Assembly: GCA_947259925.1 (NCBI GenBank)
Contig: CAMYOG010000036.1
Span: 36,208 to 100,207, forward strand
Length of the DNA stretch: 64,000 nucleotides
Origin: Thermoanaerobaculia bacterium
GTDB taxonomy: Bacteria > Acidobacteriota > Thermoanaerobaculia > Multivoradales > JAHEKO01
Direction of reading: 5' to 3'
The position numbers and the translations under genes are program-made. Below are positions 3,963 to 33,633 of the stretch, piece by piece. Position 1 is the stretch's first letter. Each line of letters starts with the position of its first letter. The notes below the pieces were generated by a model. The model did no database searches, was not told the origin of the DNA, and saw only the letters and a program-made list of their open reading frames with translations.

Positions 3963-4018
3963 GAGGAATGCCCAGCAGGGCGCGCGCTAGACTATCTCAC
4001 TAGCGAGGCCACGTTGAC

Positions 4019-6723: not shown

Positions 6724-7362
6724 ATGGCCAAGGACTACTACGCCATTCTGGGTGTGCCGCGGAACGCGACGCAGGCGCAGGTCCGGGCGCGCTTCCTGGA
6801 GCTGGCCCGCAACCAGCACCCCGATCGCTTCCAGGGTGAGGAGAAGGTCAAGGCGGAGGACGAGTTCCAGGAGATCACCCAGGCGTTCAACGTCTTGAGC
6901 GATCCGACCCAGCGGCGGGAAGCCGACGCGGCTTTGCTGCAGGCGGACAAGGGGGGAGGCGAAGAGCAGAGCGGCGCCGCCAAGGTCTACATACGCCGTG
7001 GCATCAAGGCCTACCGCGAGCGCAACTTCGTCGAGGCCGCCGACAACTTCCAGCGAGCGACCAAAGAGGAACCGCGCAACGCGCGCGCCTGGAGCTATCT
7101 GGCGCAGGCGTGTCAGCACCAGAGCGCCCGGCTCGCCAAGGCGCGTCAGGCGGCGGCCAAGGCGTGCCAGCTCGAGCCGATGAACGCCAGGTACTTGAAG
7201 CTCGCCGGACGGCTGTTCGCGCAGGCCGAGATGTACTCCCGCGCCGAGAAGTACTACGTCGCGGCACAGAACTGGGGGGAGGAGGACGCCGAGGTCGAGG
7301 CCGCCCTGGCCGACGTCCAGCGGCGCATGAAGAAGTCGCGCGGCGGGCTTTTCGGCGGATGA
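6724..7362 (+). CDS. J-domain (DnaJ-like) protein with TPR-like C-terminus
   Basis: KDYYAILGVPRNATQAQVRARFLELARNQHPDR (HPD motif), followed by TPR-like helices (YIRRGIKAYRERNFVEAADNFQRA...). Confidence 0.85.
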   Translation: MAKDYYAILGVPRNATQAQVRARFLELARNQHPDRFQGEEKVKAEDEFQEITQAFNVLSDPTQRREADAALLQADKGGGEEQSGAAKVYIRRGIKAYRERNFVEAADNFQRATKEEPRNARAWSYLAQACQHQSARLAKARQAAAKACQLEPMNARYLKLAGRLFAQAEMYSRAEKYYVAAQNWGEEDAEVEAALADVQRRMKKSRGGLFGG

Positions 7363-8135: not shown

Positions 8136-8162
8136 CCGCGGCGCCAGGCCGTCCGGTCGGAC

Positions 8163-9323
8163 CTAACCGCCCAGCTTGTAGCCCTGGCGGGCGCGGACCC
8201 GGAAGGTCGGGTTGACCGTCTTCACCGAGACCTGGCGGTAGTCCTCTTCGTCCTTCTCGTCCAGGGTGTACTCGGAGCGGTAGCTCAGCAGGTAGTAGCC
8301 GTTGTTGTCCTCCGCGATCTGATGCAGCGGATCGCGGAAGTTGATGAAATTGAAGAAGTACCTGCCACCGGTATCGTTCGACAGCACGCTCAGTCCGTTC
8401 TGGAGCTCCGCGATGTCCGGATTGAGGTCGGAGTCGTCGCGCAGAACCGAGATCGAGTAGACCGCCACGTTGTTGTCGTTCAGCTGCTCCATCATCGGCG
8501 CGTAGTAGCGGGAGTCCGGGGTGTAGGTGGTGGGAGTGTCCCCGACCACGCCGGCCTGGGTGATGTCACCGCCGACGTCCGTTTCGCCCAGACCGATGGT
8601 GAAGAGGAGCAGGTTCTTGCGACCGGTGATGTATCCGGCCGCCTCTCCGACCGTCTCGAGAGCGGCAAACATCCGCTTGCTGGCGCGCCGCAGCTCGTCA
8701 CCACGAGGCAGGTTCTTGGCCAGCGAGGGCCCCTCGTGGGTGGCGACGCGCGATTCCCAGAGATCGCCCGGCCGCTTGCCCTTGGCGAGCTGATTCAGGG
8801 CGCGCACGATCTTCTCGTTGTCGGTCGTGAAGTCCTGGTAGACCGACAGCCGGGCGTCCCAGCCGACAACCGCCACCCAGTCGTTGGGCAGGAGCTCTGA
8901 GTAGACCCACTTCTTGACCATCCGGATCGCCTCCAACTGGTAGGCGGTGAAGGCCGGGTTGAAGTGACGGGTCTCCTCGAAGAAGAGAATGAAGAAGCGA
9001 TCGACCGGAACCTGGCCGCGCTCGACGCCCAGCCGCTCGGCCAGATCGGCGCTGTCCACGAAGCGCCGATTGCTGTAGAAGGTCGCGCTGTTCAGACTGA
9101 CCGGGGCGCCCTTCTCCTCGACGATGAAGTCGCTCGGCTCGAGGCCGAGGATGACGTTGCCTTTGTCGTCAGTGACCAGCACGTCGAGCAACACCTCGGT
9201 CACGTTGATCTGCTCGCCGAACTGGCTCGCGGGCTCGTCCTGTGCCGGTGCCGCGGCGGGCAGCAGCAGTGCAACCAGGGCGATGGCTCCAACTACGGAT
9301 TGGGTCAGTCGTCTATTGCGCAT
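8163..9323 (-). CDS. secreted VWA domain protein (acidobacterial VWFA-related type)
   Basis: Has a signal peptide and an N-terminal block INVTEVLLDVLVTDDKGNVILGLEPSDFIVEEKGAPV. This is followed by a VWA-like fold, as in the TIGR03436-type proteins I recall. Confidence 0.7.
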   Translation of the reverse strand: MRNRRLTQSVVGAIALVALLLPAAAPAQDEPASQFGEQINVTEVLLDVLVTDDKGNVILGLEPSDFIVEEKGAPVSLNSATFYSNRRFVDSADLAERLGVERGQVPVDRFFILFFEETRHFNPAFTAYQLEAIRMVKKWVYSELLPNDWVAVVGWDARLSVYQDFTTDNEKIVRALNQLAKGKRPGDLWESRVATHEGPSLAKNLPRGDELRRASKRMFAALETVGEAAGYITGRKNLLLFTIGLGETDVGGDITQAGVVGDTPTTYTPDSRYYAPMMEQLNDNNVAVYSISVLRDDSDLNPDIAELQNGLSVLSNDTGGRYFFNFINFRDPLHQIAEDNNGYYLLSYRSEYTLDEKDEEDYRQVSVKTVNPTFRVRARQGYKLGG

Positions 9324-9373
9324 TTATAGAGCTCCTCTTCTTCTCTCTGCCAGATAGCAAAAGCGATGCCGGG

Positions 9374-9600
9374 TGCCGGGTATCGGGGACAGGCACGAAC
9401 ACCCAGCCTCGGTGTCGTGCGGTTCGTTGCGGCGAGGCCGGTCGGGGACAGGCACGAACACCCAGCCTTGGGTGTCCTGCGGGTCGATGCCACGAGGCCG
9501 TGGCTGGAGATATCCACAAAGATCGCTGTTCGTGCCTGTCCCCCAGCAAAGATCGCTGTCCGTGCCTGTCCCCCAAAGATCTCTGTCCGTACCGATCCCG
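9374..9600. repeat. REP-like intergenic repeat cluster (core GGGGACAGGCACGAACA)
   Basis: The core is at 9385-9401 and 9444-9460 inside two ~59-bp direct units. Its reverse complement is at 9527-9543 (exact), 9557-9573 (1 mismatch) and 9584-9600 (degenerate), in ~30-bp tandem units. Confidence 0.85.
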
Positions 9601-9631
9601 CGGAAGGCGTCCCAATCTGAGGACGACTCCC

Positions 9632-11774
<2,143 letters not shown>

Positions 11775-17860: not shown

Positions 17861-18091
17861 CCCTACTGCGCGAGCGTACGCACCTGAATCTGCGCGATCT
17901 ACCTCGGTCGGGCGTCCTCGACGTACACGAGTACGCCTGCGGTGCCCTCGGTCGGCAGATCCCACATCTCCAGGCGCCTACACTCGCTCGCTACGGGCCA
18001 CCCTCTCGGTGATGACGCGGGCCGCGTCCGCGAGTGGTCGCGGGGAGGCTCTCAGGGAGTAGACTGGGGCCGAGGAGGAGCTTGGAAGCAG

Positions 18092-18898
18092 ATGTCGCGC
18101 CTCCGCACGCCGGCAGTCAGCGGACTCTTCTACCCTGAGTCGGCACGCGAGCTGAGGTCGCTGGTCCGTCGGTACCTCGACGAGGGGGAGAGCTCGCCGC
18201 AGCTCGGTGGCGACGCCCGCGCACTAATCGCGCCGCACGCCGGCTATGTCTACTCGGGCCCGATCGCCGGCAGCTCGTTCCGGCAGCTGATGCCCGCGGG
18301 CCCGCCGGTCGAGCGTGTCGTGCTGCTCGGCCCGTCCCACCGTTATCCGTTCGTGGGCCTGGCGCTGCCGGACGCCGACGCCTTCTCGACGCCGCTCGGC
18401 GACGTGCCGATCGACGCCGAGCTGCGCGAGAGGGTAGAGGATCTGCCGCAGGTCGTGGTCAGCGACCCGGCGCACGCGCAGGAGCACTCGCTCGAGGTCG
18501 AGCTGCCGTTCCTCCAGGAGGTGCTCGGGGACGGCTTCAGTCTGCTCCCCCTGGTGGTCGGATCGAGCGACGCCGAGTCGGTCGCCGAGGTGCTCGAACG
18601 GGTCTGGACCGCGCCCGAGATTCTGGTCGTGATCAGCTCCGATCTCTCGCACTTCCTGAGCTACGACCAGGCGTCGAGGCTCGACGCCGACACCGCCGAG
18701 CGGATCCTGCGGCTCGATACCCACCTCACCGGGGACCGGGCGTGCGGAGCGATCCCGATTAACGGCCTGCTACGGGCGGCGCGGCGCCGCGGCCTGACCG
18801 GCCGCCTGCTCGATCTGCGCAACTCGGGCGACACCGCCGGCAATCGTTCCAGCGTCGTCGGCTACGGTGCGTTCGACTTCGGGGCCGCTCCGGCATGA
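18092..18898 (+). CDS. AmmeMemoRadiSam system protein B (Memo-like)
   Basis: PAVSGLFYP, APHAGYVYSG and HSLEVELPFLQ motifs. A GAGGAGGAG Shine-Dalgarno sequence lies 12 nt before ATG 18092, so the track's upstream extension was rejected. Confidence 0.8.
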   Translation: MSRLRTPAVSGLFYPESARELRSLVRRYLDEGESSPQLGGDARALIAPHAGYVYSGPIAGSSFRQLMPAGPPVERVVLLGPSHRYPFVGLALPDADAFSTPLGDVPIDAELRERVEDLPQVVVSDPAHAQEHSLEVELPFLQEVLGDGFSLLPLVVGSSDAESVAEVLERVWTAPEILVVISSDLSHFLSYDQASRLDADTAERILRLDTHLTGDRACGAIPINGLLRAARRRGLTGRLLDLRNSGDTAGNRSSVVGYGAFDFGAAPA

Positions 18899-19455
18899 CC
18901 GATGTTGCAGCCGGCGGCGCCGCGCTCCTGGCGATCGCGCGCTCGGCCCTGATCGAGGCGGTGAGCGGTACACGGACGGAGACCGCCGAGCCGCCCGAGT
19001 CGCTGCGCGAAGAGCGAGCGACCTTCGTGACGTTGACACGCCACGGCGAGCTGCGCGGCTGCATAGGAACCCTCGAGCCGCGCCGTTCGCTCTACGACGA
19101 CGTGCGCGAGAACGCCCGCGCCGCCGCGCTGAGAGATACCCGCTTCGCGCCGGTCGGCGCCGATGAGCTCGACGACATTTCGGTCGAGGTCTCGGTCCTC
19201 TCACCACTGCGGGAGATCGAGCACCGGGACGAAGACGAGCTGCTCGCGATCCTGCGGCCGGGCGTCGACGGGCTGGTCATCGCCCACGAGGCCCGCCGCG
19301 CGACCTTCCTGCCCCAGGTCTGGGAGAGCCTGCCGCATCCACGCGCTTTCGTGCAGGCACTCAAGACCAAGGCGGGACTGGCGCGAGACTTCTGGTCGGA
19401 CGACCTGCGCGCCTGGCGCTTCACGGTCGAGAAGTTCGGAGAAGAGGACGGCTGA
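18895..19455 (+). CDS. AmmeMemoRadiSam system protein A (AMMECR1 domain)
   Basis: ATGA overlap with the Memo-like gene. The AMMECR1 signature is present: FVTLTRHGELRGCIGTLEP...DTRFAPV. Confidence 0.85.
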   Translation: MTDVAAGGAALLAIARSALIEAVSGTRTETAEPPESLREERATFVTLTRHGELRGCIGTLEPRRSLYDDVRENARAAALRDTRFAPVGADELDDISVEVSVLSPLREIEHRDEDELLAILRPGVDGLVIAHEARRATFLPQVWESLPHPRAFVQALKTKAGLARDFWSDDLRAWRFTVEKFGEEDG

Positions 19456-19458
19456 GGG

Positions 19459-20655
19459 CTATTCGGCTCGAAGCGCCTCGACCGGGTCCAGGCTCGCCGC
19501 ACGCCGCGCCGGCAGCACTCCCGACAGCAGGCCGGTCGCCAGGCTGAAGGCGACCGCCGCGACCACGAACTCCGGCGGCGTGTGCACCGGCAGGCCGGGG
19601 ATCGCGGTGCGCAAGAGAGCGCAGATGCCCAGTCCAATGCCGACCCCGATCATGCCGCCGAGGCTAGCGAGCGCCGCCGCCTCGGTCAGGAAGACCATCT
19701 CCACCTGGCGCCGGGTGGCACCGATCGACCGGATCAGGCCGATCTCATTGGTGCGCTCGCCGACGGCGATCCACATCATGGTCAGGATTCCGATCGCGCC
19801 CACCAGGAGCGAGATGCCGGCGATCGCGGCGACTCCGGTGGTGACGATGTTCATGATGTTGTCGAAGACCTCGAGCATGCCCGCCTGCGTGACCAGGGTG
19901 AAGTCCTCCTTACCCCGGTGCCGCTCGACCAGGGTCGCGCGCACAGCCTCGACGACTCTCTCCTCGTTCTGGGAGGCCGAGTACTTGAGGTCGATCTCAC
20001 CCAGCTCGTCCAGGTTGAAGAGCTTCATCGACCGCGCCACCGGGATCCAGGCGGCGTCGTTCAGGTCGAAGCCGAGCATCTGCCCCTTCGGCTCCATCAC
20101 TCCGACGACGCGGAAGCGCCCGCCGGCGATGCGCACGAACCTGCCGAGCGCCGGCTCCTGGCCGAACAGCTCGCGCTTCAAGGTCGGGCCGAGAACCGCT
20201 TCCGCCGGGCCACTCCAGGGATCGGAGGAGTGCCAGAAGCCACCCAGCTGGACGTTCCACTGCCAGACATCGGGGACCGACGGCGTCACGCCGTAGACGA
20301 AGACGCTCCGGCCACGGCCGTTGGCCTCGACGCGCGCCATTGCGAACGCGATCGGCACCATCTCCTCGACGCCCGGGATACGGCGGAGCGCCTCGGCGTC
20401 GTGCAGCGTCAGCTTGTTGGTCGAGCCGCCGAACGCGCCCGGCAGGCCGCCGGTCTCCGCCTTGCCCGGGTTGATGGCGATGATGTTGGCGCCGAACTGC
20501 GCGAACTGGTTGACGATGTAGCGCCGGGTCCCCTCGCCGATCGAGGTGAGCAGGATGACCGAGGCGATGCCGATGGCGATGCCGACCATCGACAGCAGAG
20601 ACCGCAGCCGCTGTGCCCGGATGGCCCTCAGAGCCAGCTGGATCAGCTCGCGCAT
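19459..20655 (-). CDS. ABC transporter permease (FtsX/MacB-type, LolC/E-like)
   Basis: Starts at MRELIQLALRAIRAQRLRSLLSMVGIAIGIAS. Has a periplasmic domain and a C-terminal FtsX 3-TM bundle. It is a paralogue of the upstream permease. Confidence 0.85.
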   Translation of the reverse strand: MRELIQLALRAIRAQRLRSLLSMVGIAIGIASVILLTSIGEGTRRYIVNQFAQFGANIIAINPGKAETGGLPGAFGGSTNKLTLHDAEALRRIPGVEEMVPIAFAMARVEANGRGRSVFVYGVTPSVPDVWQWNVQLGGFWHSSDPWSGPAEAVLGPTLKRELFGQEPALGRFVRIAGGRFRVVGVMEPKGQMLGFDLNDAAWIPVARSMKLFNLDELGEIDLKYSASQNEERVVEAVRATLVERHRGKEDFTLVTQAGMLEVFDNIMNIVTTGVAAIAGISLLVGAIGILTMMWIAVGERTNEIGLIRSIGATRRQVEMVFLTEAAALASLGGMIGVGIGLGICALLRTAIPGLPVHTPPEFVVAAVAFSLATGLLSGVLPARRAASLDPVEALRAE

Positions 20656-20710
20656 CGCCCTACCTAGACTGTCTACCCGAAGTCGCCTCCTGTCAAGCGT
20701 GGCCGCCGAA

Positions 20711-21906
20711 CTAGCGCTGGCCGAGGGCGGCGATCGGGTCGAGTCCGGTGGCGCGGCGCGCCGGGATAACGCCGAAGACGACCCCGACCACGATCGAGAC
20801 ACCGAGGGCCGCACCCACCGCCCAGAGCGGCGTGGTGGCAGGAAACGCAGGCCAGAGCCTGACCACGGTCCGCACGATCAGCCACCCGGTGCCGAGCCCG
20901 ATCAGGCCGCCAGCGATCGAGATGAGCGACGCCTCGGCCAGAAAGACGGTGAGGATCTGCCGGTTGTTGACGCCGACCGCTTTGAGCAGTCCGACCTCGC
21001 TGGTCCGCTCGGATACCGAGACCAGCATCACGTTCATGATGCCGATGCCGGCGACCGAGAGCGAGATCGCCGCGATCGCCGCCACCGCCAGAGTAAGGGT
21101 ATTGAGGATCGCCGAGAAGGTACTGACGACCGCGTCCTGGGTGATGACGGTGATGTCCTCTTCCTCGTGGCGCTCGGTGATCAGATCGACCACCCGGTCG
21201 CGGGCGAGATCGAGATCGGTGTGAGCGTGCACCTGGATCAAGATTCGGAAGAGCGAGCTCCGGTTGAGCATTTTCATGCCGGTGCGTACCGGCACGATCA
21301 CCAGGTCGTCGAAGTTGACGCCCATCTTGGTGCCCTGCTTGGCCAGGACGCCGATGACCCGCATCCGCCAGCCGCCGACACGGACCACGGCGCCGATCGG
21401 GTCGCGATTGTCGAACAGCTCCTTCGCCGCCTTGTGTCCGAGCACGGCGACATTGGCGCCGCGAAAGAGCTCCTCGTCGGGCAGGAACTCGCCCCGTTGG
21501 AGCTGGACCCGCCGGGCATGCTGATACTCGGAGGTCGTGCCGAGGACCACGATCTGACGGCTCCGCTCTCGGAAGGCAACCTCCTCGGTGCCCATCGAGA
21601 TTGGTGCCACCCGCCGCGCCTGCGAGATCTCGCGTGCGATCGCCTGCGCGTCTTCGAGGGTCAGATCGTTCGGGACGCCACCGATCCCCATCGTGCCGCT
21701 GGTCTCGGTGCGGCCCGGCAGCACGATCAGGAGATTGGTTCCGAGGCTGTTGAACTGATCGACGACGTAGAGGCGCGCGCCCTCGCCGAGCGCGGTCAGG
21801 ACCACGACCGCGGCCACGCCGATCATCACGCCGAGCAGGCTGAGCGCGGTGCGTAGGCTGTGACCGGTGAGCGCCTTGAGCGAAAAGCGGAGCACCTCGA
21901 CCGGTC

Positions 21907-21910
<4 letters not shown>
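20711..21910 (-). CDS. ABC transporter permease (FtsX/MacB-type, LolC/E-like)
   Basis: LRFSLKALTGHSLRTALSLLGVMIGVAAVV and a C-terminal FtsX domain. 4-nt overlap with the ATPase gene. Confidence 0.85.
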
Positions 21911-22626
<716 letters not shown>

Positions 22627-22639
22627 CCGCTCCCCGAGG

Positions 22640-23806
22640 TCACCGGGCCGATTCGTCGGCCGATTCGTCCTCCGCGACCGCGAGCGCTCCCGCCTCGATC
22701 TCCGGCCGGTCGAGGGAGACGACGATCTCCTCGCCCTCGTCGAGGCCGCTCGTGATCTCGGTGTAGTCCCAGTTGCGCAAGCCGATCTCGACTTCGCGCT
22801 CGGCGAGCCGGTCGCCGTCGAGAACCAACACCCGGCTGCCCTCGATCAGCGCGGACGTCGGGATCCGGGGCACGTCCTCTCGCACCGAGAGGATTACCTC
22901 GACGTCCGCCGAGGTGCCGGGCAGGATCCGCTTTCCGAGGCGATCTATGTCGACCTCGACCTCGACCGTCCGATTCTGCTCTTCGATATCGAGCACGTAG
23001 GGAGCGACGCGCGCGATCGTGCCGGGAAAGCTGATGTCCCGATGCGAGTCGATGCTCACCCGGGCCGGCATTCCGCTCCGGATCCGACCGGAGTCGACCT
23101 CGTCCATCGGAGCCGAGATGTAGATCGATTCCGGGTCGAGCACGTCGACCACCGGCGGCACCGGCAGTGCCGGCGGTGACGGCGTCGTCCACTCACCGAC
23201 CTCGATCGTCACTTCGGCGATCACGCCGGTGAACGGCGCCCGCAGGACGGTTTTCGACAGCGCGGTTCGGGCGACCGCGACCGCGGCCTGAGCCCGCGCC
23301 GTGTTCGCGGCCGCGGTGCGGCAGGCGGCGTCGGCGGTCAGGTGGGCGCTCTCGACCGAATCGAGCAGATCGGTCGAGACGATCTCCTCGTCGGCCAGGG
23401 TGCGCATTCGCTCGAGCTCGCGCTCGGCCCGCTGCGCGGCCAGGCAGGCGCGCTCCTGCTCTGCGCGCGCCGCCTGGCGCTCGCGCTCCGACAGGTCGAG
23501 CTGGGCTCGTTGGGAGCGATCGTCGAGCTGCAGGACGACCGCGCCCGCCTCGACCGTCGCCCCCTCTCGGTGGGGGACGGCGACAACCTGGCCGCCGATC
23601 TCGGGCGATAGCTTCGCCCGCCGGCGGGCGGTCACCGTGCCTGCCCGCGAGTTGGTCACCGTCTCCTCGACCGTGCCACGCTCGACGCTGGTGAGGCGAA
23701 CCGGCACCGGGTCGGGAGCCAAGACGGTCGCCTTGAGCACCATGAACAAGATGACGACGCCGACCAGGATCGCCAGTCGAATCAGCCACTTTTTCATTTC
23801 CAGCAC
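22640..23806 (-). CDS. periplasmic adaptor subunit (HlyD/MacA/DevB-type membrane fusion protein)
   Basis: N-terminal TM anchor, a coiled-coil hairpin (AQLDLSERERQAARAEQERACLAAQRAERELERMR) and beta-barrel segments (APFTGVIAEV..). Confidence 0.85.
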   Translation of the reverse strand: MLEMKKWLIRLAILVGVVILFMVLKATVLAPDPVPVRLTSVERGTVEETVTNSRAGTVTARRRAKLSPEIGGQVVAVPHREGATVEAGAVVLQLDDRSQRAQLDLSERERQAARAEQERACLAAQRAERELERMRTLADEEIVSTDLLDSVESAHLTADAACRTAAANTARAQAAVAVARTALSKTVLRAPFTGVIAEVTIEVGEWTTPSPPALPVPPVVDVLDPESIYISAPMDEVDSGRIRSGMPARVSIDSHRDISFPGTIARVAPYVLDIEEQNRTVEVEVDIDRLGKRILPGTSADVEVILSVREDVPRIPTSALIEGSRVLVLDGDRLAEREVEIGLRNWDYTEITSGLDEGEEIVVSLDRPEIEAGALAVAEDESADESAR

Positions 23807-23883: not shown

Positions 23884-26800
23884 GTGAGGGTGAGACGGCT
23901 CCTCGGACGCACCCTGCTCGCGCTCGCGGTCCTGTTGGTGCTGGTGGTTGGTGCCCTCTGGCTCGCGCTCCATACCGAGACCGTGCAGCGCGCCGTGCTC
24001 GAGAGTGCCAGCGAGACGCTGGAGCGGCGCTTCGGACTGAGGCTCGAGGCCGAGTCGATCGACTTCAGTCCGTCGTCCGGCGCGCTCGAGCTGGGCGGCC
24101 TCACGGTGAGCGACTCGCAGCGAGGCTCGCTGGCGACGATCGAGTCCGTCCGAGGCCGGGTGCGTCTGCTGCCACTGCTCGGCAACCGACTCGTGGTCCC
24201 CGAGCTGGCGCTCGACCGGCCGACGATCGATCTGGGCCGGCTACCGGATCCGCTGGACAAGGAAGCGGACGCCACGGCGGAGGATGGAGCTCCGGTCGTG
24301 CCACCGGTCGAGATCGCCAGCTTGCGCATTCTCGGCGGCGCCCTGACCGGGCTGCCGACTCCAGAGCTGGGAGACCACTGGCAGTGGCATGGCGGGCTGG
24401 ACGAGATCGAGATCGAGGCTCAGCTGGTCGAGGGTCGGCTGGCGGCCGGGCTGACGCGTGCGACGACGGTGCTCAGGCGCGGCGAGCTCGACTCCCTGAG
24501 CCTCGAGCTCGGGGCGGTCCTCGCCGGCCCGCTGTCGGGACCGTTCGAGCTCACCGAGGCCAGGGTGCGCTCGGACGATCTGACGCTTTCCCTGTCCGGA
24601 ATCCTGGGGGTCGCGGACGAGCAACCGTTCGAGCTGGAGTTCGACGGTCGCTTCGATGCCGGACGCCTGCTGGGTGCCGACCTGGCGGCACCGGTCTCGG
24701 CGAGCGGCGAGCTCGACCTGCGCGCTGGCGGCGGCAGGGCAACGATCGAGGTGTCGAGGGCGCCAGCGGAGCTGGCAGCTCGCTGGCTCGGGCCGTCGCT
24801 GGGGGCCGAGCTCAGCGTCGCGGGGACGGCCGTCGACCTGAACGGCGACCTGGAGCTCGGACCAGGGGCTCTCGACCAGGTGCGCGGGTCGCTGACCGGG
24901 AGCTGGAGGAGGGGAGAGAGCGAGCTGCTCACGCTCGAAGCATCGCCGGAGATCGTCGGCTCCGAGCGGAGCGCTAGGGTCCCGTTCATACTCGAGCTCA
25001 CCCCGGATCTGCCCGGCGGCCGGCGGCTCGATGGACGGTTGGCGATCGCGGACTGGGACGAGCTCGCGGACGCCACGATCGAGGACGGGCGGCTCGAGCT
25101 CGAGCTACCGGAGGTCCGAGAGACGCTCGCGTCGGTGGCGGAGATCTGGCCGAGCGCGCCGCGGGCCGGGCGCTTTGATGGCTCCCTGGAGCTCGGCGGG
25201 TCGCTCTCGGGTCCGCTTCTCGAGCCGGAGGTCGACCTCGACGGCGTCCTGCGGGCGGGGGATCTATCGTCGTTACAGGTGTCGATCGCTGGAGCGCCGA
25301 CGGTTCTCCGGGGACGGGTCGCCGCTCGGGCCGAGAGCGTGTCGCTGGCCGAGCTGGGCGGCGCGGCGAGCGGCGTAGTCGACGGTCGGGTGGAGGTCGT
25401 CGTCGGCCCGAGCGGCCTGACCGGGAGCTTCGACCTCGCGGCGCGGGAGGTCGCGGCCGGAGACGGCAACGATCTGGATCTGATCGCGGTCGGCGAGCTG
25501 GCGGGCGGCGGAGTCGCTGTCACACGCCTCGAGCTGGCGAGCGAGTCGCATCGGCTGACCACCGCCGCGACCGTCGAGCCCACGCCCGACGGCCTCCGGA
25601 TCGTCACCGAAGGACTGAGGGTGGACGGCGTCGCGGCGGAGCTCGAAGCCGACCTGCACGCGGCGCTGCTGCCGCGGGCCGACCTCTTGCCGCGGCTCTT
25701 CGGCGCCCCGGCGTGGTCGACGCCGGCGTCGCGGGAGCGGCGGCTGCGACTGGCCTGGGACCTTCTCCGGTCCGATCTGGGTCCGCTGCTGGGTGCGGAG
25801 GATGCGGAGCTGGACCTGGCGACCTCGGGTGACGTCTCGATCGACCTCGGAGTGCCCTCGGCGAGCACCGGCGAGATTCTGCTCTCGGTCTTCGAGTGGA
25901 CCGCCGGCGACCGACGAGTCGCCCTAGCCGACGGTCTCGAGCTCCGATGGGCGGACGGCGTCCTGGTGGCCCCGGGGACCCGATTCACCGCCGGTGGCTC
26001 GAGCTTCACCGGCGACCTGAGCGTCGGCCTGAGCGATCGATGGCGCCCCGGAGATCCATGGGACTCGCTGATCGCCGACGCCCGGATCGTCGGCCACGGC
26101 GTGGTCGGCGCCGGCTGGCCCGGTGAGCTCGTCCGACCCGCCCCGCTTTCAGAAGCGCCGCTCGACTTCGACCTCGAGCTTCGCGCGGACCGGAGCGTCC
26201 TCGGCGGTGATCTTCGCGTCGACGGTGGTGGCTCATTCCTGGAGGCACGAGGCGCGGCCGACCTCGCGGCGGACTGGAGGCCGGGCGACCCCTGGGCGTC
26301 TTCGATCGCCGCCGTCGACCTGACCGCCAACGGTCACCTGGCCGCGAGCTGGGTCGGTGCGCTGCTCGGTGCCGTCGAGCCGGCCGACGGTGCTCTGACG
26401 ATCGATCTCGATCTCGCCGGTCGGCCGGAGGCACTCTCCGGAGCACTGACGGTCGGCGGACCGGAGCTCGTCCTGGGCCTTCTCGAGCGGGGCCGAGTGC
26501 GCCTCGAATCGCCACGGATCGATCTGCGAGTCGCCGATCGCTCGCTGACCCTGGAACGGCTCGATGCGAGTGTCAACGGACGACCGCTCACCGGCCGCGG
26601 GAGCGCGCGGATCGCCGGCGGGCGGCTGGAGCTCGAGCGTCTCGAGCTCGTCTTCGACGGAGTCGAGGGCGTCTGGAGCGGGGGACTGCCGCTCGACGAG
26701 ACGACCGACGAGGTCCGGCTGGAGTGGAGAGTCGCCGAAACCGAGCTGGGCCCCGCGCTGGCGCTCTTCGAGCTGATCGGGGACGAGGACACGCTCCGGC

Positions 26801-29800
26801 TCGGCTCGACCGGAAGCTTCCGGCTGCCGCTGTCCGATCCCGCCCGGCTCGAGGGCTCGATGGAGGTGACCGGCTTCGAGTGGACGAGTCGCGGGCGACG
26901 GACGCATACGCAAGATCCGATTCGTGCCAGCGCCGGCGAGGGACGACTGCGACTCGAGCCGCTGCGGCTACTCTCCGAAGACCAGGCCTTCGACTTGGTC
27001 GGCACCGTCGATCTGGTGGCGGGCTGGAGCAGCGAAGCGGAGCTGCTGGATCTCTTCGGCGAGCTGGAGGTCAGAGGTAGCGGCACGCTCCTCACTTCGG
27101 TCCTGAATCCGTTCCTGAGCGGCGCGGTCGCCGACGGCCATCTGGAGGTCGAGCTGGAAGCGGTCGGGCCACCGTGTGAGCTGCGCGGCCGGCTGACGGC
27201 GCGCGGCAGCGATGCGCGTCTGACCTATGTTCGTCCGTACGCGACGCGCCTGTCCGACCCCGATCTGCAGCTCCTCCTGGAACCGGGAGGCATCGCCCGG
27301 CTGGACGGCAGCCTGGCGCTGAATGAAGGCCGGATCGAGCTGTCGGGTGCCGCCACCGACGGCGTTCTGAACCTGGACGCGACGATCGAGGGCGCCCGCT
27401 TCCGGCTCGACCACGGCCTGCTCGCGCTGCTCAACGGCGATCTGATCCTGGCCCGGAGCTCGACCGGGGCATGGGCGCTGGGCGGTACCGTCGAGGTCGA
27501 GAACGGAGTGCTGACGCGGGACGTCGATCTCGACCTCGACCTGGTCGCCGGCCTACTGTCGCCGGTCGATCTGACGTCGACGGAAGCAAGTCCGCTGGAA
27601 GCGTTCGCGCTCGATCTCGATCTGACGACCGTCGAAGGGATCCGAGTCAAGAACAACATCGCCGACCTTCTGGTCCGCTGGGATCCGATCCGGATTCGCG
27701 GCTCGCTGGCGTCGCCGGTGCTCGCGGGGAGATTCGACGTCGAGCCGGGGGGCAGGGTGCGCGCGTTCGGCCAGACGGTGCGCATCGACGGCGGCTCGAT
27801 CGACTTCCCGGGGGTGGCGGATCTACCCGCCACCGTCGATCTGGACATGACCAGCTCGCTCGAGGACCCGAGCATCGGGAGTCTCGCCAGAGACGATCCG
27901 TTCGCCGGCCACAGCGACCTGGACCAGGACGAGGACGAGTCGGCGCGCCTCGAAGCCGCCGCCAGCGGGTTGGGGATGTTCTACGGCGAGCGCCTGGCGT
28001 CGCGGCTGTCCAGCGGCGTCACCGGTGCCCGCGTGTCGCTGCAGCCGCTCCTGATCTTCGGCGAGGCCGATCCGGGTGCGCGCCTGACCGTGAGCCAGGA
28101 CTTCTCGCCCCAGGTCACCCTGGCGGCATCGATCGATCTGCGCAACGCCGAGCGGCGGACCTACCTGCTCGACATCCATCGGCTCGACGCCGCTCCGGGG
28201 CTGAACGCCCAGGTGATCACCACCGACGAGGCCAGCCAGGGCGCCTCTCTCGGTCAGCGGCTGCTGCTCGGACCGGGCGGTGCCCCTCGCGTCGAGGGTC
28301 CGAAGATCCGGAGGATCCGGTGGGAGCTGCCCGATCGGGTTTCGAAACGACGCGTCAAGCGGGCCGCCGCGCTGCGCAAGGGAGACCGGCTGGCGCCGGG
28401 CGGCCGCTTCGCCGCCGAGGTCGACGTGGTCGAAGCGCTGCGTCGGCGCGGATACACCGACGCCCGGGCGTCGATCGAGGAGATCGAGGTCGACGGTGGG
28501 GTCGAGCTGGTGGTCGCCGTACAGTCCGGACCGAGATCACGGTTCGAGTTCGTCGGCACCGAGCTGCCGAAGCCGCTGCGGCGTCCGGTCGTCGATCTCT
28601 ACCGGGCGGACTACTATGAGACAGCGGCGCTCGAGGAGATGGCGGCCGAAGCCCGCCGGGCGCTGAGGAGTGTCGGTTATCTCGAGCCCGTGGTCGAGGT
28701 CCGGGTCGACCTGGACGATCCGGCGCGGCCCGAGGGTGACCGAACGGTAGTCGTCTCGATGGCGGGCGGCGAGCGAGTCGAGCTCGAGCGTATCCGGTTC
28801 GTGCCCCTGCCGCCGGACGAGACCGAGCTGCTCGCGGCCCGGTTCTCGCGGCCGGTCGGACGGGTCGAGCTGGCGGCGGGACTCGCCGACGCCGATCGTC
28901 GAGTCGAGCAGAGTCTCCGCTTCCTCGGCTACGGCGATCCGCGAGTGGTCGATCGGCGCATCCTCGACCGTGGCCGGGAGCTCGAGGTGGTGCTCGAGCT
29001 GGGCGAGCGTCCGCGGATCGGGTCGATCGAGATCACTGGCGTCGAGTCCGGGGAGGCCGCCCGGCTCGAGCGCTTGATCGAGCTGCAGCCCGGAGATCCG
29101 GTGCGCTCCGATCGCATCGCGGGCGCGGCGCTGGCGTTGCGCGAGGACCTGCGGTCGCGTGGCTTCTCCGATGCCGTGGTCGAGCCGCGGGTGACGCTCG
29201 CGGAGCGGGACTCGGACGCCGAGCTGAGCTTCGCGGTCGAGCCGGGAACGTCCTACTTTCTGAGTGAGGTCGGCTTCACCGGCCTCCGATCGACCCGGTC
29301 GCGCTTCGTGAAGACCGTCGCCGATCTGGAGCTCGAAGGCGACTTCTCGCAGGTCGGTTTGATGGAGGCGCGACGGCGCCTCTGGTCGACCCAGCTGTTC
29401 GAGATCGTCACTCCAGAGGTGGCTCGGGCGCCCGGAGGCGCCGTACGCGTCGACTTCGGTGTACGGGAGAAGAGACGCTTCGAGTTCGCCTACGGTCTGC
29501 GCTGGGACAGCGAGGAGGAGGCGAGCGCGCTGCTCGAGGTGATCGATCGCAACGCGCTCGGGCGCGGCTGGACCGCTGGTCTGAGGACCCGCTGGTCGGA
29601 GGATCTGCAGAGTGTGCGCACCTTCGCCGGTCTGCCGAGGCTGTTCAACGCGCGCTCGTCGCTCGGGCTGTTCGCCGCCTTCGAGGAGGAGACCAAGGCG
29701 GGCTTGATCACCGAGACCATCGAGGGCACCGTGCAGCTCGGCTACGAGTTGACCGGGCGGCTCACGCTCCGGCTCTACGGCCGGTTGACCGATACCCATG

Positions 29801-30459
29801 TGCGCGAGGAGATCCCCGATCCGCGCTTTCCGTTCGACGTCCGGCTGACGCGTCCGGTGCTCGGGACACAGCTGCTCTACGATCGCAGATCGGGCCATCT
29901 GCTGAGCCAGCGGGGCCTGCTGACGACCGCCGACCTGACCTACAGCGACAGCGCCTTCGGGAGCGATTTCGACTACGCGCGCTTCTTCGGCCAGGTCAGC
30001 TATTTCAAGCGCCTGTTCGGCCCCGCCACGCGCCCCTGGATCTGGGCCCAGTCGGCCAGGGTCGGTATCGCCGAGGCGTTCGATCAGGAGCTGATCCGGC
30101 CGGAGCGCTTCTTCGCCGGCGGCGAGTTCTCGGTGCGCGGCTACCTGACCGAGTCGCTCGGGCCGCAGGAGCGGCTCGGCCCGATCACCCGGGCGGTGGG
30201 TGGCGAGTCGTTGCTGGTGATCAATCAGGAGCTCCGCTGGCGGTTCGCGGAGAGCTTCACCGCCACCCTGTTCGTGGACGCTGGCAACGTCTGGGTTCGG
30301 GCTTCCGACCTGGGATCCGAGCTGGTCTACTCGACCGGCATCGGTCTGCGCGCCCTGACGCCGGTCGGGATCCTACGGCTCGATCTGGCGCACGCGCTCG
30401 ATCGTCGACCGATCGACCCCGAGTACAAGCTCTACGTCGGCTTCGGCAACACCTTCTAG
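23884..30459 (+). CDS. giant envelope protein: TamB-like (AsmA/DUF490) module fused to TamA/BamA-like POTRA + Omp85 beta-barrel
   Basis: Single uninterrupted 2,191-codon ORF with an N-terminal signal anchor. A DUF490-like block sits at ~27640-27830 (IRVKNNIADLLVRW..GRFDVEPGGRVRAFGQTVRIDGGSIDFPG). POTRA-like repeats begin at ~28300. The C-terminal barrel motifs are FFAGGEFSVRGY, VDAGNVW, GIGLRALTPVGILRLDLAH and the terminal GFGNTF. Confidence 0.8.
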   Translation: MRVRRLLGRTLLALAVLLVLVVGALWLALHTETVQRAVLESASETLERRFGLRLEAESIDFSPSSGALELGGLTVSDSQRGSLATIESVRGRVRLLPLLGNRLVVPELALDRPTIDLGRLPDPLDKEADATAEDGAPVVPPVEIASLRILGGALTGLPTPELGDHWQWHGGLDEIEIEAQLVEGRLAAGLTRATTVLRRGELDSLSLELGAVLAGPLSGPFELTEARVRSDDLTLSLSGILGVADEQPFELEFDGRFDAGRLLGADLAAPVSASGELDLRAGGGRATIEVSRAPAELAARWLGPSLGAELSVAGTAVDLNGDLELGPGALDQVRGSLTGSWRRGESELLTLEASPEIVGSERSARVPFILELTPDLPGGRRLDGRLAIADWDELADATIEDGRLELELPEVRETLASVAEIWPSAPRAGRFDGSLELGGSLSGPLLEPEVDLDGVLRAGDLSSLQVSIAGAPTVLRGRVAARAESVSLAELGGAASGVVDGRVEVVVGPSGLTGSFDLAAREVAAGDGNDLDLIAVGELAGGGVAVTRLELASESHRLTTAATVEPTPDGLRIVTEGLRVDGVAAELEADLHAALLPRADLLPRLFGAPAWSTPASRERRLRLAWDLLRSDLGPLLGAEDAELDLATSGDVSIDLGVPSASTGEILLSVFEWTAGDRRVALADGLELRWADGVLVAPGTRFTAGGSSFTGDLSVGLSDRWRPGDPWDSLIADARIVGHGVVGAGWPGELVRPAPLSEAPLDFDLELRADRSVLGGDLRVDGGGSFLEARGAADLAADWRPGDPWASSIAAVDLTANGHLAASWVGALLGAVEPADGALTIDLDLAGRPEALSGALTVGGPELVLGLLERGRVRLESPRIDLRVADRSLTLERLDASVNGRPLTGRGSARIAGGRLELERLELVFDGVEGVWSGGLPLDETTDEVRLEWRVAETELGPALALFELIGDEDTLRLGSTGSFRLPLSDPARLEGSMEVTGFEWTSRGRRTHTQDPIRASAGEGRLRLEPLRLLSEDQAFDLVGTVDLVAGWSSEAELLDLFGELEVRGSGTLLTSVLNPFLSGAVADGHLEVELEAVGPPCELRGRLTARGSDARLTYVRPYATRLSDPDLQLLLEPGGIARLDGSLALNEGRIELSGAATDGVLNLDATIEGARFRLDHGLLALLNGDLILARSSTGAWALGGTVEVENGVLTRDVDLDLDLVAGLLSPVDLTSTEASPLEAFALDLDLTTVEGIRVKNNIADLLVRWDPIRIRGSLASPVLAGRFDVEPGGRVRAFGQTVRIDGGSIDFPGVADLPATVDLDMTSSLEDPSIGSLARDDPFAGHSDLDQDEDESARLEAAASGLGMFYGERLASRLSSGVTGARVSLQPLLIFGEADPGARLTVSQDFSPQVTLAASIDLRNAERRTYLLDIHRLDAAPGLNAQVITTDEASQGASLGQRLLLGPGGAPRVEGPKIRRIRWELPDRVSKRRVKRAAALRKGDRLAPGGRFAAEVDVVEALRRRGYTDARASIEEIEVDGGVELVVAVQSGPRSRFEFVGTELPKPLRRPVVDLYRADYYETAALEEMAAEARRALRSVGYLEPVVEVRVDLDDPARPEGDRTVVVSMAGGERVELERIRFVPLPPDETELLAARFSRPVGRVELAAGLADADRRVEQSLRFLGYGDPRVVDRRILDRGRELEVVLELGERPRIGSIEITGVESGEAARLERLIELQPGDPVRSDRIAGAALALREDLRSRGFSDAVVEPRVTLAERDSDAELSFAVEPGTSYFLSEVGFTGLRSTRSRFVKTVADLELEGDFSQVGLMEARRRLWSTQLFEIVTPEVARAPGGAVRVDFGVREKRRFEFAYGLRWDSEEEASALLEVIDRNALGRGWTAGLRTRWSEDLQSVRTFAGLPRLFNARSSLGLFAAFEEETKAGLITETIEGTVQLGYELTGRLTLRLYGRLTDTHVREEIPDPRFPFDVRLTRPVLGTQLLYDRRSGHLLSQRGLLTTADLTYSDSAFGSDFDYARFFGQVSYFKRLFGPATRPWIWAQSARVGIAEAFDQELIRPERFFAGGEFSVRGYLTESLGPQERLGPITRAVGGESLLVINQELRWRFAESFTATLFVDAGNVWVRASDLGSELVYSTGIGLRALTPVGILRLDLAHALDRRPIDPEYKLYVGFGNTF

Positions 30460-30469: not shown

Positions 30470-31315
30470 TCAGAGGCTGCCGAGCAGCCGGCTCGCTTGC
30501 GCCGCTTCGGGGGCGTGCGGCGCCATCGCCAGGAAGCGATCGAGGTCGTTGACCAGCAGATCCTTGCGCCCGATCTCATTGGCCGCCAGACCCCGGTAGT
30601 AGTAGGCGTACGCGATCCCGGAGTTCATATCGATCGCCTGGGTCAGCGTGTCGATGGCGGCGTTCCAGTCCTTCTTGAACGCCTGCGTGGCACCGATCTG
30701 ATAGACGACCCGGGCGTCCCGCGGACTGGCGCCGCGCGCCTTCTCGAGGGTGGTGATGGCCTGGTCGTAGCGTCCCAGCCCCTGTTGCGCGACACCCAGG
30801 AAGTAGAGTGCCTCCGCGTCGTCCGGTGCCCGGTCGAGAATCGCCTCCGCCCGCTGGGCGGCGCGAGCGAACGCGTCGTTCGCCTGGCCGGTGTTGCGGG
30901 AGCGGAGGTGGGCCTCACCGAGGTAGACCAGTGGCGCGGGATCGCCGTCGGCGGCATCGGCGGCTGCGGTGAGCCGGCCGATCGCCTTGGAGGTGTTGCC
31001 CTCCTGCTCGAGCACGCGCCCGTCGGCGATCTGCAGGTAGACGTTCGAGTCGAGCGCCTCGCCCGCCAGCAACGCCCGAGCCGCGTCGGTGTCGTAGGCG
31101 AGCAGACGCCTGTCGACGTCCTGGACTACCCGCGGCGGGGCGGCCGACCTGCTCGGACTGTCGCCGGTCTCGGTACCGGTGGCGGTCTCCGAAGACTCGG
31201 CCTTGTCCTTCTTCTTCTTCTTTTTCTTCTTCTTCCCGGCCAAACCTTCGTCGGCGCTGCCCACGAGCAGGGCCAGGACCAGAAGCCAGCTGAGCTTTCT
31301 CGCGTCCGTCGTCAT
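30470..31315 (-). CDS. secreted TPR-repeat protein with poly-lysine tract
   Basis: Start at MTTDARKLSWLLVLALLVGSA (signal peptide), then the K9 tract and several TPR units (ALYFLGVAQQGLGRYDQAITTLEKA..). The track's upstream extension was rejected. Confidence 0.75.
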   Translation of the reverse strand: MTTDARKLSWLLVLALLVGSADEGLAGKKKKKKKKKDKAESSETATGTETGDSPSRSAAPPRVVQDVDRRLLAYDTDAARALLAGEALDSNVYLQIADGRVLEQEGNTSKAIGRLTAAADAADGDPAPLVYLGEAHLRSRNTGQANDAFARAAQRAEAILDRAPDDAEALYFLGVAQQGLGRYDQAITTLEKARGASPRDARVVYQIGATQAFKKDWNAAIDTLTQAIDMNSGIAYAYYYRGLAANEIGRKDLLVNDLDRFLAMAPHAPEAAQASRLLGSL

Positions 31316-31359
31316 CGTCGCTCTCCTACCAAGCAAACCGGGTGCCAGCCTCCTGGGTG

Positions 31360-32163
31360 TCAGTCGATGGTGACGTCGTCCAGGCCCTCCTCGGGATCGG
31401 GGAACCGGATGTTCAGCCCACGGAGTCGGGCCACCAGGGCCCTGGTGATGGCGAGGTTGCGGTACCACTTCTGATCCGCCGGAATCACCCACCAGGGCGC
31501 GTGCTCCGTGCTGCACCGCGACAGGGCGTCCTCGTAGGCGGCCATGTAGTCCGGCCATTGCCGGCGCTTGTCCAGATCGCCGCGCGAGAACTTCCAGCGT
31601 TTTTGGGGCTCGTCGAGACGGTCCTGGAAGCGCTTCTTCTGCTCGTCGAGCGAGATGTGGAGGAAGAACTTGAGGATCGTGGTCCCGGTAGCGGCCAGCA
31701 GCCGCTCGAAGTCGTTGATCATCTCGTAGCGCTCGCGCCAGACCTCCTCGGGGACCAGGCGATCGACCCGGACGACCAGCACCTCCTCGTAGTGCGAGCG
31801 GTTGAAGACGCCGATCATGCCGGTGCCCGGAACCGCCTTGTGGACACGCCAGAGGAAGTCGTGGGCGAGCTCCTCGCGCGACGGCACCTTGAACGAGGTC
31901 ACCCGCACGCCCTGGGGGTTGACGCCCTTGAAGACCCTGCGGATGGTGCCGTCCTTGCCGCCGGCGTCCATCGCCTGGAGGACCACGAGCACCTTGCGCC
32001 TGCCCTCGGCGTAGAGGGCGTACTGCAGGTCGGCGAGCTCCTTGCGGAGCTTCCGGAACTCGCGCTCCGCCGCGTCGCGGTCGTCGTGGAAGTCGTCGGC
32101 GCGGGTCGACAGGTCGGCCAGCCGAACCCGTGTCCCCGACCTCACGATATGAGTCTCGGGCAT
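31360..32163 (-). CDS. ppk2: polyphosphate kinase 2 family (polyphosphate:nucleotide phosphotransferase)
   Basis: VLVVLQAMDAGGKDGTIRRVF (Walker A-like), REELAHDFLWRVHKAVPGTGMIGVFNRSHYE and APWWVIPADQKWYRN. Confidence 0.9.
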   Translation of the reverse strand: MPETHIVRSGTRVRLADLSTRADDFHDDRDAAEREFRKLRKELADLQYALYAEGRRKVLVVLQAMDAGGKDGTIRRVFKGVNPQGVRVTSFKVPSREELAHDFLWRVHKAVPGTGMIGVFNRSHYEEVLVVRVDRLVPEEVWRERYEMINDFERLLAATGTTILKFFLHISLDEQKKRFQDRLDEPQKRWKFSRGDLDKRRQWPDYMAAYEDALSRCSTEHAPWWVIPADQKWYRNLAITRALVARLRGLNIRFPDPEEGLDDVTID

Positions 32164-32208
32164 CAGCCTGGATTCTACTCCTCGACGCGCCGGGTAGACT
32201 TCCGCTCG

Positions 32209-33633
32209 GTGCACCTTCCCCTCTGGGTAGCGATTCCGGTCCTGCTGCTCGCGGCGGTCGCGGTGCTCGACCGCTTGCTCAAGCCGGGCGTCCGCTGGTT
32301 CCTACGGCAGCGCGTCAACCACGCGCTCGAGGAGGCGAACCGTCGCCTCCGCATCCGGCTTCAGCCGTTCAAGCTGACCCGGAGGCGGGTGCTGATCGAT
32401 CGGTTGATCCACGACCCCGAGGTGGTCGCCGCGGCCGACGAGCACGCGCGGCGCCACGACATGCCGCGCGCGGTGGCGATGGAGAAGGTCGGGCGCTACG
32501 CGCGCGAGATCGTGCCCGCCTTCAACGCCTACGTCTACTTCCGCTTCGGCTTCTGGCTGTCACGTCTGGTCGCCCGCACCCTCTACCGGGTCCGGTTGGG
32601 GGCCATCGACGAACCGGCGCTCCGCCGCGTGCCGGCCGATTCGACCCTCGTCTTCGTGATGAACCACCGCAGCAACCTCGACTACCTGCTGGTCTCCTAT
32701 CTGGTCGCGGAGCAGACCGCGCTCAGCTATGCGGTAGGGGAATGGGCGCGGGTCTGGCCGCTCGAGACGCTGGTCCGCTCGATGGGCGCCTACTTCGTCC
32801 GCCGCCGGTCGCGCAACGATCTCTACCGCCGGGTGCTGGCGAGCTACGTCGCGATGGCCACCAACGAGGGGGTGACCCAGGCGGTCTACCCCGAAGGTGG
32901 CCTGAGCCGGGACGGCCGCATGGCGCCGCCCAAGCTGGGGCTGTTCGACTACATGCTCAGGTCGTGGGATCCGGACGGCCCCCGGGATCTCGTCTTCGTG
33001 CCGGTCGGTATCAACTACGATCGGGTCCTGGAAGACCGTACGCTGCTACGCGATCTCGATGCGAGCGCCGAGAAGGTCGGCGTGCTCGCCTCGGTCTGGA
33101 CCTTCCTACGCTTTGCGGCCAACAACGTCCGCCTGGCATCGATCGGCCGCTGGTACCGATTCGGCTACGCCTGTGTGAAGTTCGGGCGACCCCTGTCGAT
33201 GAAGGCGTACGCCGCCGAGCCTGGGATCGTCTTCTCGGCGCTGGAGCGAGCCGAGCGCTTCGAGCTCGTGGCCGAGCTCGCCGAGGAGCTGATGGATCGA
33301 GTGCACGAGGTGGTGCCGGCGCTGCCGGCCGCGCTGGTCGCGACCGTGCTCCTCGAGGAGCCGGACCGTCCCCGTAGCGAGCTCGAGCTCAAAGCGTCTG
33401 CCCAGGCGGTGATCGAGAGGCTCGAGGCGCGCGGCGTCTCGGTCTACGTGCCGCGCGCGGACCGCGACTACGCGATCCGGGTCGGTCTGCGCATGTTGAC
33501 TCTGCGGCGCGCGGTGGAGGAGCGGGAAGGGCTCTTCTACACCGTTCCGCGCGAGCTGCCGCTCCTCTCCTACTACGCCAACTCGATCGGCCCGCGTCAC
33601 CCCGACGCTCTCATCGCGGGAGCCGGAGCGTGA
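32209..33633 (+). CDS. PlsB-like glycerol-3-phosphate / lysophospholipid acyltransferase
   Basis: HX4D motif (VMNHRSNLDYLL) and a YPEGGLSRDG motif. GTG 32209 was chosen; the in-frame ATG 32149 would overlap the divergent ppk2 start by 15 nt. The track's 31342 start is antisense shadow. Confidence 0.75.
   Translation: MHLPLWVAIPVLLLAAVAVLDRLLKPGVRWFLRQRVNHALEEANRRLRIRLQPFKLTRRRVLIDRLIHDPEVVAAADEHARRHDMPRAVAMEKVGRYAREIVPAFNAYVYFRFGFWLSRLVARTLYRVRLGAIDEPALRRVPADSTLVFVMNHRSNLDYLLVSYLVAEQTALSYAVGEWARVWPLETLVRSMGAYFVRRRSRNDLYRRVLASYVAMATNEGVTQAVYPEGGLSRDGRMAPPKLGLFDYMLRSWDPDGPRDLVFVPVGINYDRVLEDRTLLRDLDASAEKVGVLASVWTFLRFAANNVRLASIGRWYRFGYACVKFGRPLSMKAYAAEPGIVFSALERAERFELVAELAEELMDRVHEVVPALPAALVATVLLEEPDRPRSELELKASAQAVIERLEARGVSVYVPRADRDYAIRVGLRMLTLRRAVEEREGLFYTVPRELPLLSYYANSIGPRHPDALIAGAGA

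Follow-up and report, generated by a model that had tools for sequence, protein, structure and literature searches.

The window, i.e. the whole stretch of 64,000 nucleotides analysed here (positions 36,208 to 100,207 of contig CAMYOG010000036.1, assembly GCA_947259925.1, of a Thermoanaerobaculia bacterium), carries a gene coding for a single polypeptide in which a TamB-type protein is continued, in the same reading frame, by a POTRA-bearing Omp85 barrel. On one side of the fused gene lies a divergently oriented MacA/MacB-like system; on the other there is a gene for a periplasmic tetratricopeptide repeat (TPR) protein, situated tail to tail with the fused gene, and beyond it a PPK2 gene and a gene for a PlsB-like acyltransferase. 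The coordinates are collected in Table 1.

Table 1. The fused gene, the parts of its product and the neighbouring genes (window positions, unless a locus is named; AF2, AlphaFold2)
Feature	Position	Strand	Details
Whole fused gene	23884..30459	+	2,191 codons from a GTG start to the only stop, at the end
N-terminal signal-anchor transmembrane helix	23887..23970	+	AF2 helix aa 2-29; hydrophobic core aa 11-29 (nt 23914-23970)
TamB-type extended beta-sheet, ~aa 51-1325, presumed periplasm-spanning groove	24034..27858	+	AF2 strands; profile match to E. coli TamB
DUF490/TamB C-terminal domain, present in full, aa 1125-1462	27256..28269	+	PF04357 aa 1137-1336 (nt 27292-27891); family profile
Acidic helical insert in the TamB C-terminal domain, aa 1326-1391	27859..28056	+	holds DLDQDEDES (aa 1345-1353); AF2 pLDDT <50; not constant across the aligned family
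Five C-terminal TamB strands, aa 1400-1462	28081..28269	+	AF2, family alignment, profile; last strand (aa 1452-1462) beta-signal-like
Fusion linker GPGGAPRVEGP, aa 1463-1473	28270..28302	+	family alignment; first residue a near-invariant Gly
Five POTRA domains, aa 1474-1547, 1551-1627, 1636-1705, 1711-1786, 1792-1862	28303..29469	+	AF2 secondary structure, Pfam, Foldseek
16-strand Omp85 barrel, aa 1866-2191	29479..30456	+	loop-6 VRGY motif and C-terminal GFGNTF; Pfam, NCBIfam, AF2, Foldseek
Conserved periplasmic TPR protein, 281 aa, candidate partner	30470..31315	-	tail-to-tail with the fused gene, 10-bp gap; homologues in the same position
TPR gene in relatives	L001 9964-10839, L002 16463-17260, L004 16156-16995, L009 16112-16918, L010 16834-17442, L011 16322-16819, L013 10001-10852		
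MacA-like adaptor, ABC ATPase, two MacB-type FtsX permeases	19459..23806	-	divergent from the fused gene, 77-bp gap
PlsB-like glycerol-3-phosphate acyltransferase	32215..33633	+	start approximate, set by the 473-aa L001 orthologue

The reading frame of the fused gene, for which an alternative in-frame GTG start exists at 23890, is nowhere interrupted over its 2,191 codons. The G+C content at the three codon positions (GC1 0.76, GC2 0.50, GC3 0.86) follows the pattern of the real genes of the window, and this signature runs evenly through the TamB/Omp85 junction (GC3 ~0.85, GC2 ~0.5). The genome has a G+C content of ~68%, and long spurious open reading frames (ORFs) are plentiful on both strands. 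Several ORFs, up to 636 aa in length, overlap the fused gene in other frames or on the opposite strand (24420-26330 on the minus strand, 27471-28619 on the plus strand, 28537-29898 on the minus strand, and others). GC2 exceeds GC1 in 24420-26330 and in the several shorter overlapping ORFs checked, unlike in the real window genes; these ORFs most likely owe their existence to the high G+C content and are not genes.

Judged by Pfam, the product belongs to both the TamB (DUF490) and the Omp85 superfamilies, with all three relevant models scoring above their curated cut-offs: TamB (PF04357) at 33.2 bits against 22.4 (aa 1137-1336), POTRA (PF07244) at 75.4 bits against 21.3, and Omp85 (PF01103) at 117.5 bits against 24 (aa 1890-2191). 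The DUF490 block recognisable in the sequence itself comprises aa 1253-1310 (nt 27640-27813). The barrel part contains FFAGGEFSVRGY at aa 2076-2087, including FSVRGY at aa 2082-2087, as well as VDAGNVW (aa 2131-2137) and the terminal GFGNTF (aa 2186-2191). The AF2 model of aa 1031-2191, built from an alignment of 55 sequences, has a mean predicted local distance difference test score (pLDDT) of 84.3 and a predicted template modelling score (pTM) of 0.68. It comprises TamB-type strands at aa 1036-1324, an insert of low confidence (pLDDT <50; residues 296-361 of the modelled fragment), the terminal TamB strands, five POTRA units and sixteen barrel strands within aa 1866-2187, the POTRA units and the sixteen strands being those of a member of the Omp85 superfamily. 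Foldseek aligns this model with full-length E. coli BamA over ~800 columns (E 8e-41) and finds TamA too; the BamA match is well past chance. 

A second AF2 model, of aa 1-1100, has two helices, the first at aa 2-29, followed by ~55 strands over aa 52-950. Its low confidence at aa 982-1100 is an artefact, since these residues were misaligned in the input alignment of that run, and this part of the model is unreliable. The N-terminal and C-terminal strands mostly have a pLDDT >85. A Foldseek search of the aa 1-1100 model against the PDB gave no TamB match. The one structure that it matches significantly there (window 23884-26700) is human ApoB100, in its lipid-wrapping beta-sheet; these matches are weak, with a low template modelling score (TM-score) of ~0.2, and would reflect at most a resemblance between amphipathic beta-sheets and are uninformative.

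These results bear out the preliminary description of this DNA, made from its letters alone. It had reported one uninterrupted 2,191-codon ORF, and all the motifs that it quoted are found at the positions given there, before a single stop, including the signal anchor (aa 11-29), DLDQDEDES (aa 1345-1353) and the TamB terminal strands (aa 1400-1434). Its central claim, that an entire TamB module is joined in frame to an entire POTRA and Omp85 module, agrees with Pfam, with the AF2 model of aa 1031-2191 and with a profile match to E. coli TamB presented below.

The fusion is genuine and is no artefact of assembly, since the in-frame junction recurs in >100 independent clusters, including some on multi-megabase contigs. 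A word-indexed protein search returned 119 clusters (90% identity) originating from NCBI, ENA, JGI and Logan assemblies, nearly all of them proteins of 1.9 to 2.4 thousand residues with the TamB, POTRA and Omp85 Pfam domains. An exhaustive HMMER search with the junction segment only (aa 1291-1650) against 1.84 billion representatives (50% identity) gave 368 matches at E <= 1e-3, of which 121 reach E <= 1e-30; among the matches listed, most are proteins of 1.9 to 2.25 thousand residues aligned over the whole junction query, while the shorter ones look like fragments. At least 121 clusters (50% identity) thus span the junction. The intact fused gene is found on contigs of 4.4, 4.7, 5.1 and 7.2 Mb. 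No stretch of the 55-sequence alignment was sufficiently conserved to serve as a query, and a genome scan run with the window protein alone returned one close relative, L001; a fused copy of 52% identity, aligned over residues 30-2191 in one match, is present in the GTDB representative genome "Acidobacteriota bacterium isolate OFTM233". The gene order on both flanks of the window locus is found also in L001 and in L013, the latter on a 5.1-Mb contig, and these two are therefore orthologous loci. The source names of the family members include Thermoanaerobaculia, Luteitalea, unclassified Acidobacteriota and Candidatus Cryosericum, and the fused proteins bear generic database names such as "TamB domain-containing protein" or "BamA".

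The point of fusion can be placed precisely. A profile of the TamB C-terminal region built from 13 fused proteins aligns with residues 870-1249 of the 1259 of E. coli TamB (E 4.6e-15), so that the whole DUF490 domain is kept in the fused family; the same region used as a single sequence found no match among PDB sequences, and a profile search was needed. The last strand of E. coli TamB (1251-1259) pairs with beta1 of TamA in the cryo-EM structure (PMC12800296). Its counterpart in the window protein, aa 1452-1462, has alternating hydrophobic positions conserved in the family, with F, L or W in the final column (49 of 55 fused proteins) and Gly as the next residue (51 of 55). This strand is internal, being followed by the Gly, the linker and POTRA1, and consequently the fused protein has no free TamB C-terminus. 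The linker to the first POTRA strand comprises 8 to 30 residues across the family and 11 in the window protein. No signal peptide precedes POTRA1 in the sequence of the fused protein or in the family alignment.

Among unfused proteins, those closest to the Omp85 module of the window protein are ~990 aa long and 25-27% identical to it, and their genes lie directly downstream of tamB. The gene before omp85 in L008, which scores 151.7 bits on PF04357, shares 4 bp with omp85; in L012 a TamB of 1,485 aa is encoded 120 bp upstream of the omp85 gene. The free TamB of L008 ends with "...YAVDVRVRRTF*", its last residue falling in the aromatic column conserved among the fused proteins, precisely where the fused chains run on into the linker; the unfused Omp85 opens with a signal peptide of its own, and none is present at this place in the fused proteins. 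The simplest origin suggested by these sequences is thus a tamB-then-omp85 operon in which the tamB stop codon and the Omp85 signal peptide were lost, because the unfused relatives have the same gene order, a matching TamB end column and a signal peptide on Omp85. The order tamB-then-bamA has been reported for Spirochaetes (PMC4494059), and in Borrelia TamB (BB0794) and BamA (BB0795) have consecutive locus tags (PMC13382580). The preliminary description had held that the fusion cannot be a simple read-through of an operon, which is contradicted by L008 and L012 with tamB directly before omp85. The tamA-then-tamB order that it invoked is indeed the proteobacterial one, but it does not serve as an argument against read-through, as tamB comes first in L008, L012 and the Spirochaetes. 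It is worth adding that in L012 (1358-10976, plus strand, on a 7.18-Mb contig) the unfused tamB (1,485 aa) and omp85 (991 aa) genes follow genes for biotin carboxylase and a biotin-lipoyl (BCCP-type) protein (accC-accB) on the same strand; the overlapping gene ends suggest that tamB-omp85 may share an operon with these fatty-acid synthesis genes.

The TPR gene directly follows the fused gene, tail to tail, in eight of the nine lineages examined (the window, L001, L002, L004/L005, L009, L010, L011 and L013) and is absent in L003. The two genes overlap by 4 bp at one extreme and are 213 bp apart at the other. The encoded proteins of ~200-290 aa have TPR repeats and a signal peptide, are mutually homologous (24-48% identity to the window copy) and share the C-terminal motif AYAYYYRGLA...RFLALAPDAPEA; most of the orthologues have a signal peptide and no conserved lipobox Cys. 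At least 157 proteins belong to the family, and every one is labelled just "tetratricopeptide repeat protein". A convergent pair of genes kept over such divergence is unusual, and on the grounds of gene order the TPR protein is probably a partner of the fused protein. The conserved TPR gene was not found downstream of the unfused tamB-omp85 operons (L008/L007, L012). An assignment of the TPR protein as BamD was rejected, as NCBIfam returns generic TPR families and no BamD model. The ORF start of the TPR gene at 31558 is over-called; the true start is most likely 31315, the one used in the public gene call (281 aa). The start of ORF 31342-33633 (plus strand) is over-called as well, and the PlsB-like gene more likely begins near 32215. 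With these two revised starts there is no overlap with the PPK2 gene (31360-32214, minus strand).

Genes of lipid metabolism or transport are found within a few genes of the fused gene at several loci, those for glycerophospholipids recurring in lineages that are not related. The PlsB-like acyltransferase gene is present in the window, L001 and L013, in the last of which the lipid genes (PlsB-like and CDP-alcohol phosphatidyltransferase) lie at 3515-4213 and 7716-9104. Other loci have a PAP2 gene (L004, 17018-17911), a FabH-like gene (L009), mlaFED (L010, 5779-8738) or, directly upstream of the fused gene, a cardiolipin-synthase-like gene with two phospholipase-D domains (L011, 8475-9926). This context fits a putative role of the fused protein in lipid transport.

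The MacA/MacB-like system is also located beside the fused gene, divergently, in L001 (170-3272, minus strand) and L013 (17416-20852, plus strand). In L003, whose fused protein is only 24% identical, the system is co-directional with the fused gene (5361-9887, plus strand). Two MacB-type permeases are encoded in each of the window, L013 and L003, while the system of L001 is cut by the contig end. No gene for an outer-membrane duct was seen beside the MacA/MacB-like system. An identification of this upstream ATP-binding cassette (ABC) system with LolCDE was rejected, since MacB and MacA are its best matches and the Lol models score below cut-off. Memo-like and AMMECR1 genes adjoin with a 4-bp overlap at 17942-19455 (plus strand).

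A covalent bridge between the inner and the outer membrane, as first proposed in the preliminary description, is the natural reading of this architecture. We consider it likely that the fused protein is an operon-derived, covalent counterpart of TAM, the translocation and assembly module, acting in the supply of phospholipids to the outer membrane and possibly in protein insertion. The N-terminal helix would anchor the protein in the inner membrane, and the ~1,400 residues of TamB-type beta-sheet would form a groove across the periplasm. Past the beta-signal-like strand the chain, presumably intact in the mature protein, leads over a linker (8-30 residues in the family) to the five POTRA domains and the BamA-like outer-membrane barrel of 16 strands, which would double as the outer-membrane dock and the exit of the TamB groove. 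The terminal TamB strands would engage the lateral gate of the attached barrel, with the POTRA domains alongside, and the machine may carry phospholipids, its presumed cargo, to the outer membrane and may also help to insert outer-membrane proteins, its mode of action being modelled on that of E. coli TamAB (PMC12800296) or of the Borrelia TamB-BamA complex (PMC13382580). The fusion would set a 1:1 stoichiometry and let a single signal anchor export both halves, and the periplasmic TPR protein would be a probable partner of the bridge.

Several points weigh against the proposed bridge. The N-terminal part (aa 2-125) matches DUF748 (32.2 bits, cut-off 50), AsmA (26.6, 29.8) and YhdP (20.4, 46), but each below its cut-off. 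The best NCBIfam model for the fused protein is BamA (TIGR03303) at 169-175 bits, under its equivalog cut-off of 297; the equivalog models of TamA (NF047950; 124-131 bits, cut-off 625) and TamB (NF047952; 12.6 bits, cut-off 825) are not reached either. Because of these sub-cut-off scores the fused protein is, by its profile matches, a divergent relative and no orthologue of the characterised TamB, BamA or TamA. Members of the fused family are known from sequence and, for the window protein, from predicted structure, and the lipid-gene context is anecdotal, its category having been defined post hoc. Finally, a linker of 11 residues is hard to square with an extended arm of five POTRA domains if the last TamB strand pairs with beta1. 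As that strand would then end at the periplasmic face, POTRA1 must sit near the barrel, which requires a closed POTRA ring or another docking mode. In the model of the Borrelia complex of the beta-barrel assembly machinery and TAM (BAM-TAM), the BamA barrel is completed by TamB strands, with POTRA1 close to POTRA5 (PMC13382580), a geometry in which a short linker is feasible.

That the single ORF is a product of a sequencing or assembly error, i.e. a frameshift or a chimeric join of two adjacent genes, is hardly credible. Such an error could be suspected from one relative, L006 (2-5288, plus strand; 36% identity), in which the two halves lie in different frames, the TamB and Omp85 parts being split over three overlapping ORFs. 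However, the frame changes twice in L006 over 5.4 kb, once inside TamB and once in the linker region, and for that reason L006 was rejected as a natural split form and is itself probably a sequencing error or a pseudogene. The recurrence of the same junction in clusters from several sources and the uniform coding signature across it likewise speak against an artefact. Another explanation accepts the single ORF and takes the chain for a polyprotein, cut in the Gly/Pro-rich linker after Sec export into separate TamB and Omp85 subunits. The linker is indeed short, differs between family members in both length and sequence, and has a high content of Gly, Pro and Arg, and the strand before it keeps the beta-signal-like pattern usual at a free C-terminus; yet no conserved cleavage motif is visible apart from the Gly after an aromatic residue, and no protease gene is conserved in the neighbourhoods examined, which makes processing of this kind improbable.

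The fused Omp85 module could also be the only BamA of the organism, an insertase tethered to the inner membrane and combined with a lipid conduit, i.e. a permanent hybrid of the Borrelia BAM-TAM type. We regard this as unlikely. The five POTRA domains and BamA as the best NCBIfam match are in its favour, as is the precedent of Borrelia, where TamB works with the sole BamA (PMC13382580). Neither the 64-kb window nor the DNA up to 10 kb from any fused locus contains a second Omp85, POTRA or DUF490 gene. A word-based homologue search with the Omp85 part gave only 15 matches, none on the contigs of the fused loci. Against a sole BamA stands the BamA score, well short of the equivalog cut-off. Moreover, the nearest unfused relatives are TamB-adjacent Omp85 proteins that fall below the same cut-off (273 and 238 bits), and Acidobacteria have been reported to possess a canonical BamA and a second, TamB-linked copy (PMC4494059). 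The fullest form of this idea, in which the sole Omp85 insertase and the TPR protein would make up one two-membrane machine coupling protein insertion to phospholipid delivery, with a closed POTRA ring and TamB strands permanently in, or gating, their own lateral gate, is a long shot.

Bridges of the TamB family and the Omp85 proteins that partner them now hold a central place in the question of how the outer membrane is supplied with phospholipids and proteins, and fusions of known interacting partners are common. The fusion described here joins already-known partners and is not a new kind of system. The preliminary description knew of no account of this architecture; no paper describing the fusion was found in the literature searched on TAM evolution, in Omp85 surveys or in recent reviews, a coverage that is incomplete, but the claim of novelty is weakened because the architecture is already widespread, uncommented and under generic names, in public databases. 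The widespread covalent fusion provides independent evolutionary evidence for an obligate 1:1 TamB-Omp85 unit outside Proteobacteria and Spirochaetes. It also imposes a geometric constraint, which models of TAM or BAM-TAM must satisfy: a span of 8-30 residues has to reach from the end of the TamB part, at its last strand, to the start of POTRA1. The fused protein would be a rare single polypeptide integral to both membranes, raising the question of its own assembly. For structural studies it provides a construct in one chain, and its locus points to the TPR protein as a candidate accessory factor.

With E. coli TamA-TamB (PMC12800296) the fused protein shares a TamB presumably anchored in the inner membrane, with a beta-sheet groove that would likewise be hydrophobic, the DUF490 C-terminal domain and the beta-signal-like last TamB strand, which in E. 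coli pairs with beta1 of the 16-strand Omp85 barrel. The E. coli system consists of two polypeptides, its TamA has three POTRA domains and a signal peptide of its own, and the gene order is tamA then tamB, whereas in the window protein, a single chain, TamB comes before Omp85, the POTRA domains number five and an internal signal peptide is absent. The Omp85 part differs from TamA in its score, in the number of POTRA domains (five, not three) and in its position downstream of the TamB part. It has the five POTRA domains of BamA, but neither the equivalog score nor an own signal peptide. Because of the five POTRA domains and the higher score on the BamA than on the TamA model, it is BamA-like and not TamA, and only the BamA half of the label "TamA/BamA-like" given to it earlier is retained. 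The BAM-TAM hybrid of Borrelia burgdorferi (PMC13382580, PMC5582053) is alike in that TamB (BB0794) partners a five-POTRA BamA-type Omp85 (BB0795), but there the association is non-covalent and the BamA is canonical and the only one, unlike the single chain of the window. The unfused operons of the metagenomic relatives L008/L007 and L012 agree in gene order and in the TamB C-terminal strands, but comprise two genes, with an Omp85 of ~990 aa that has more POTRA repeats (six Pfam matches) and its own signal peptide. Chloroplast TIC236-TOC75 and TamL-TamB of Bacteroidota likewise pair a TamB-family protein with an Omp85-family barrel across two membranes, but as separate polypeptides, TamL being a lipoprotein.

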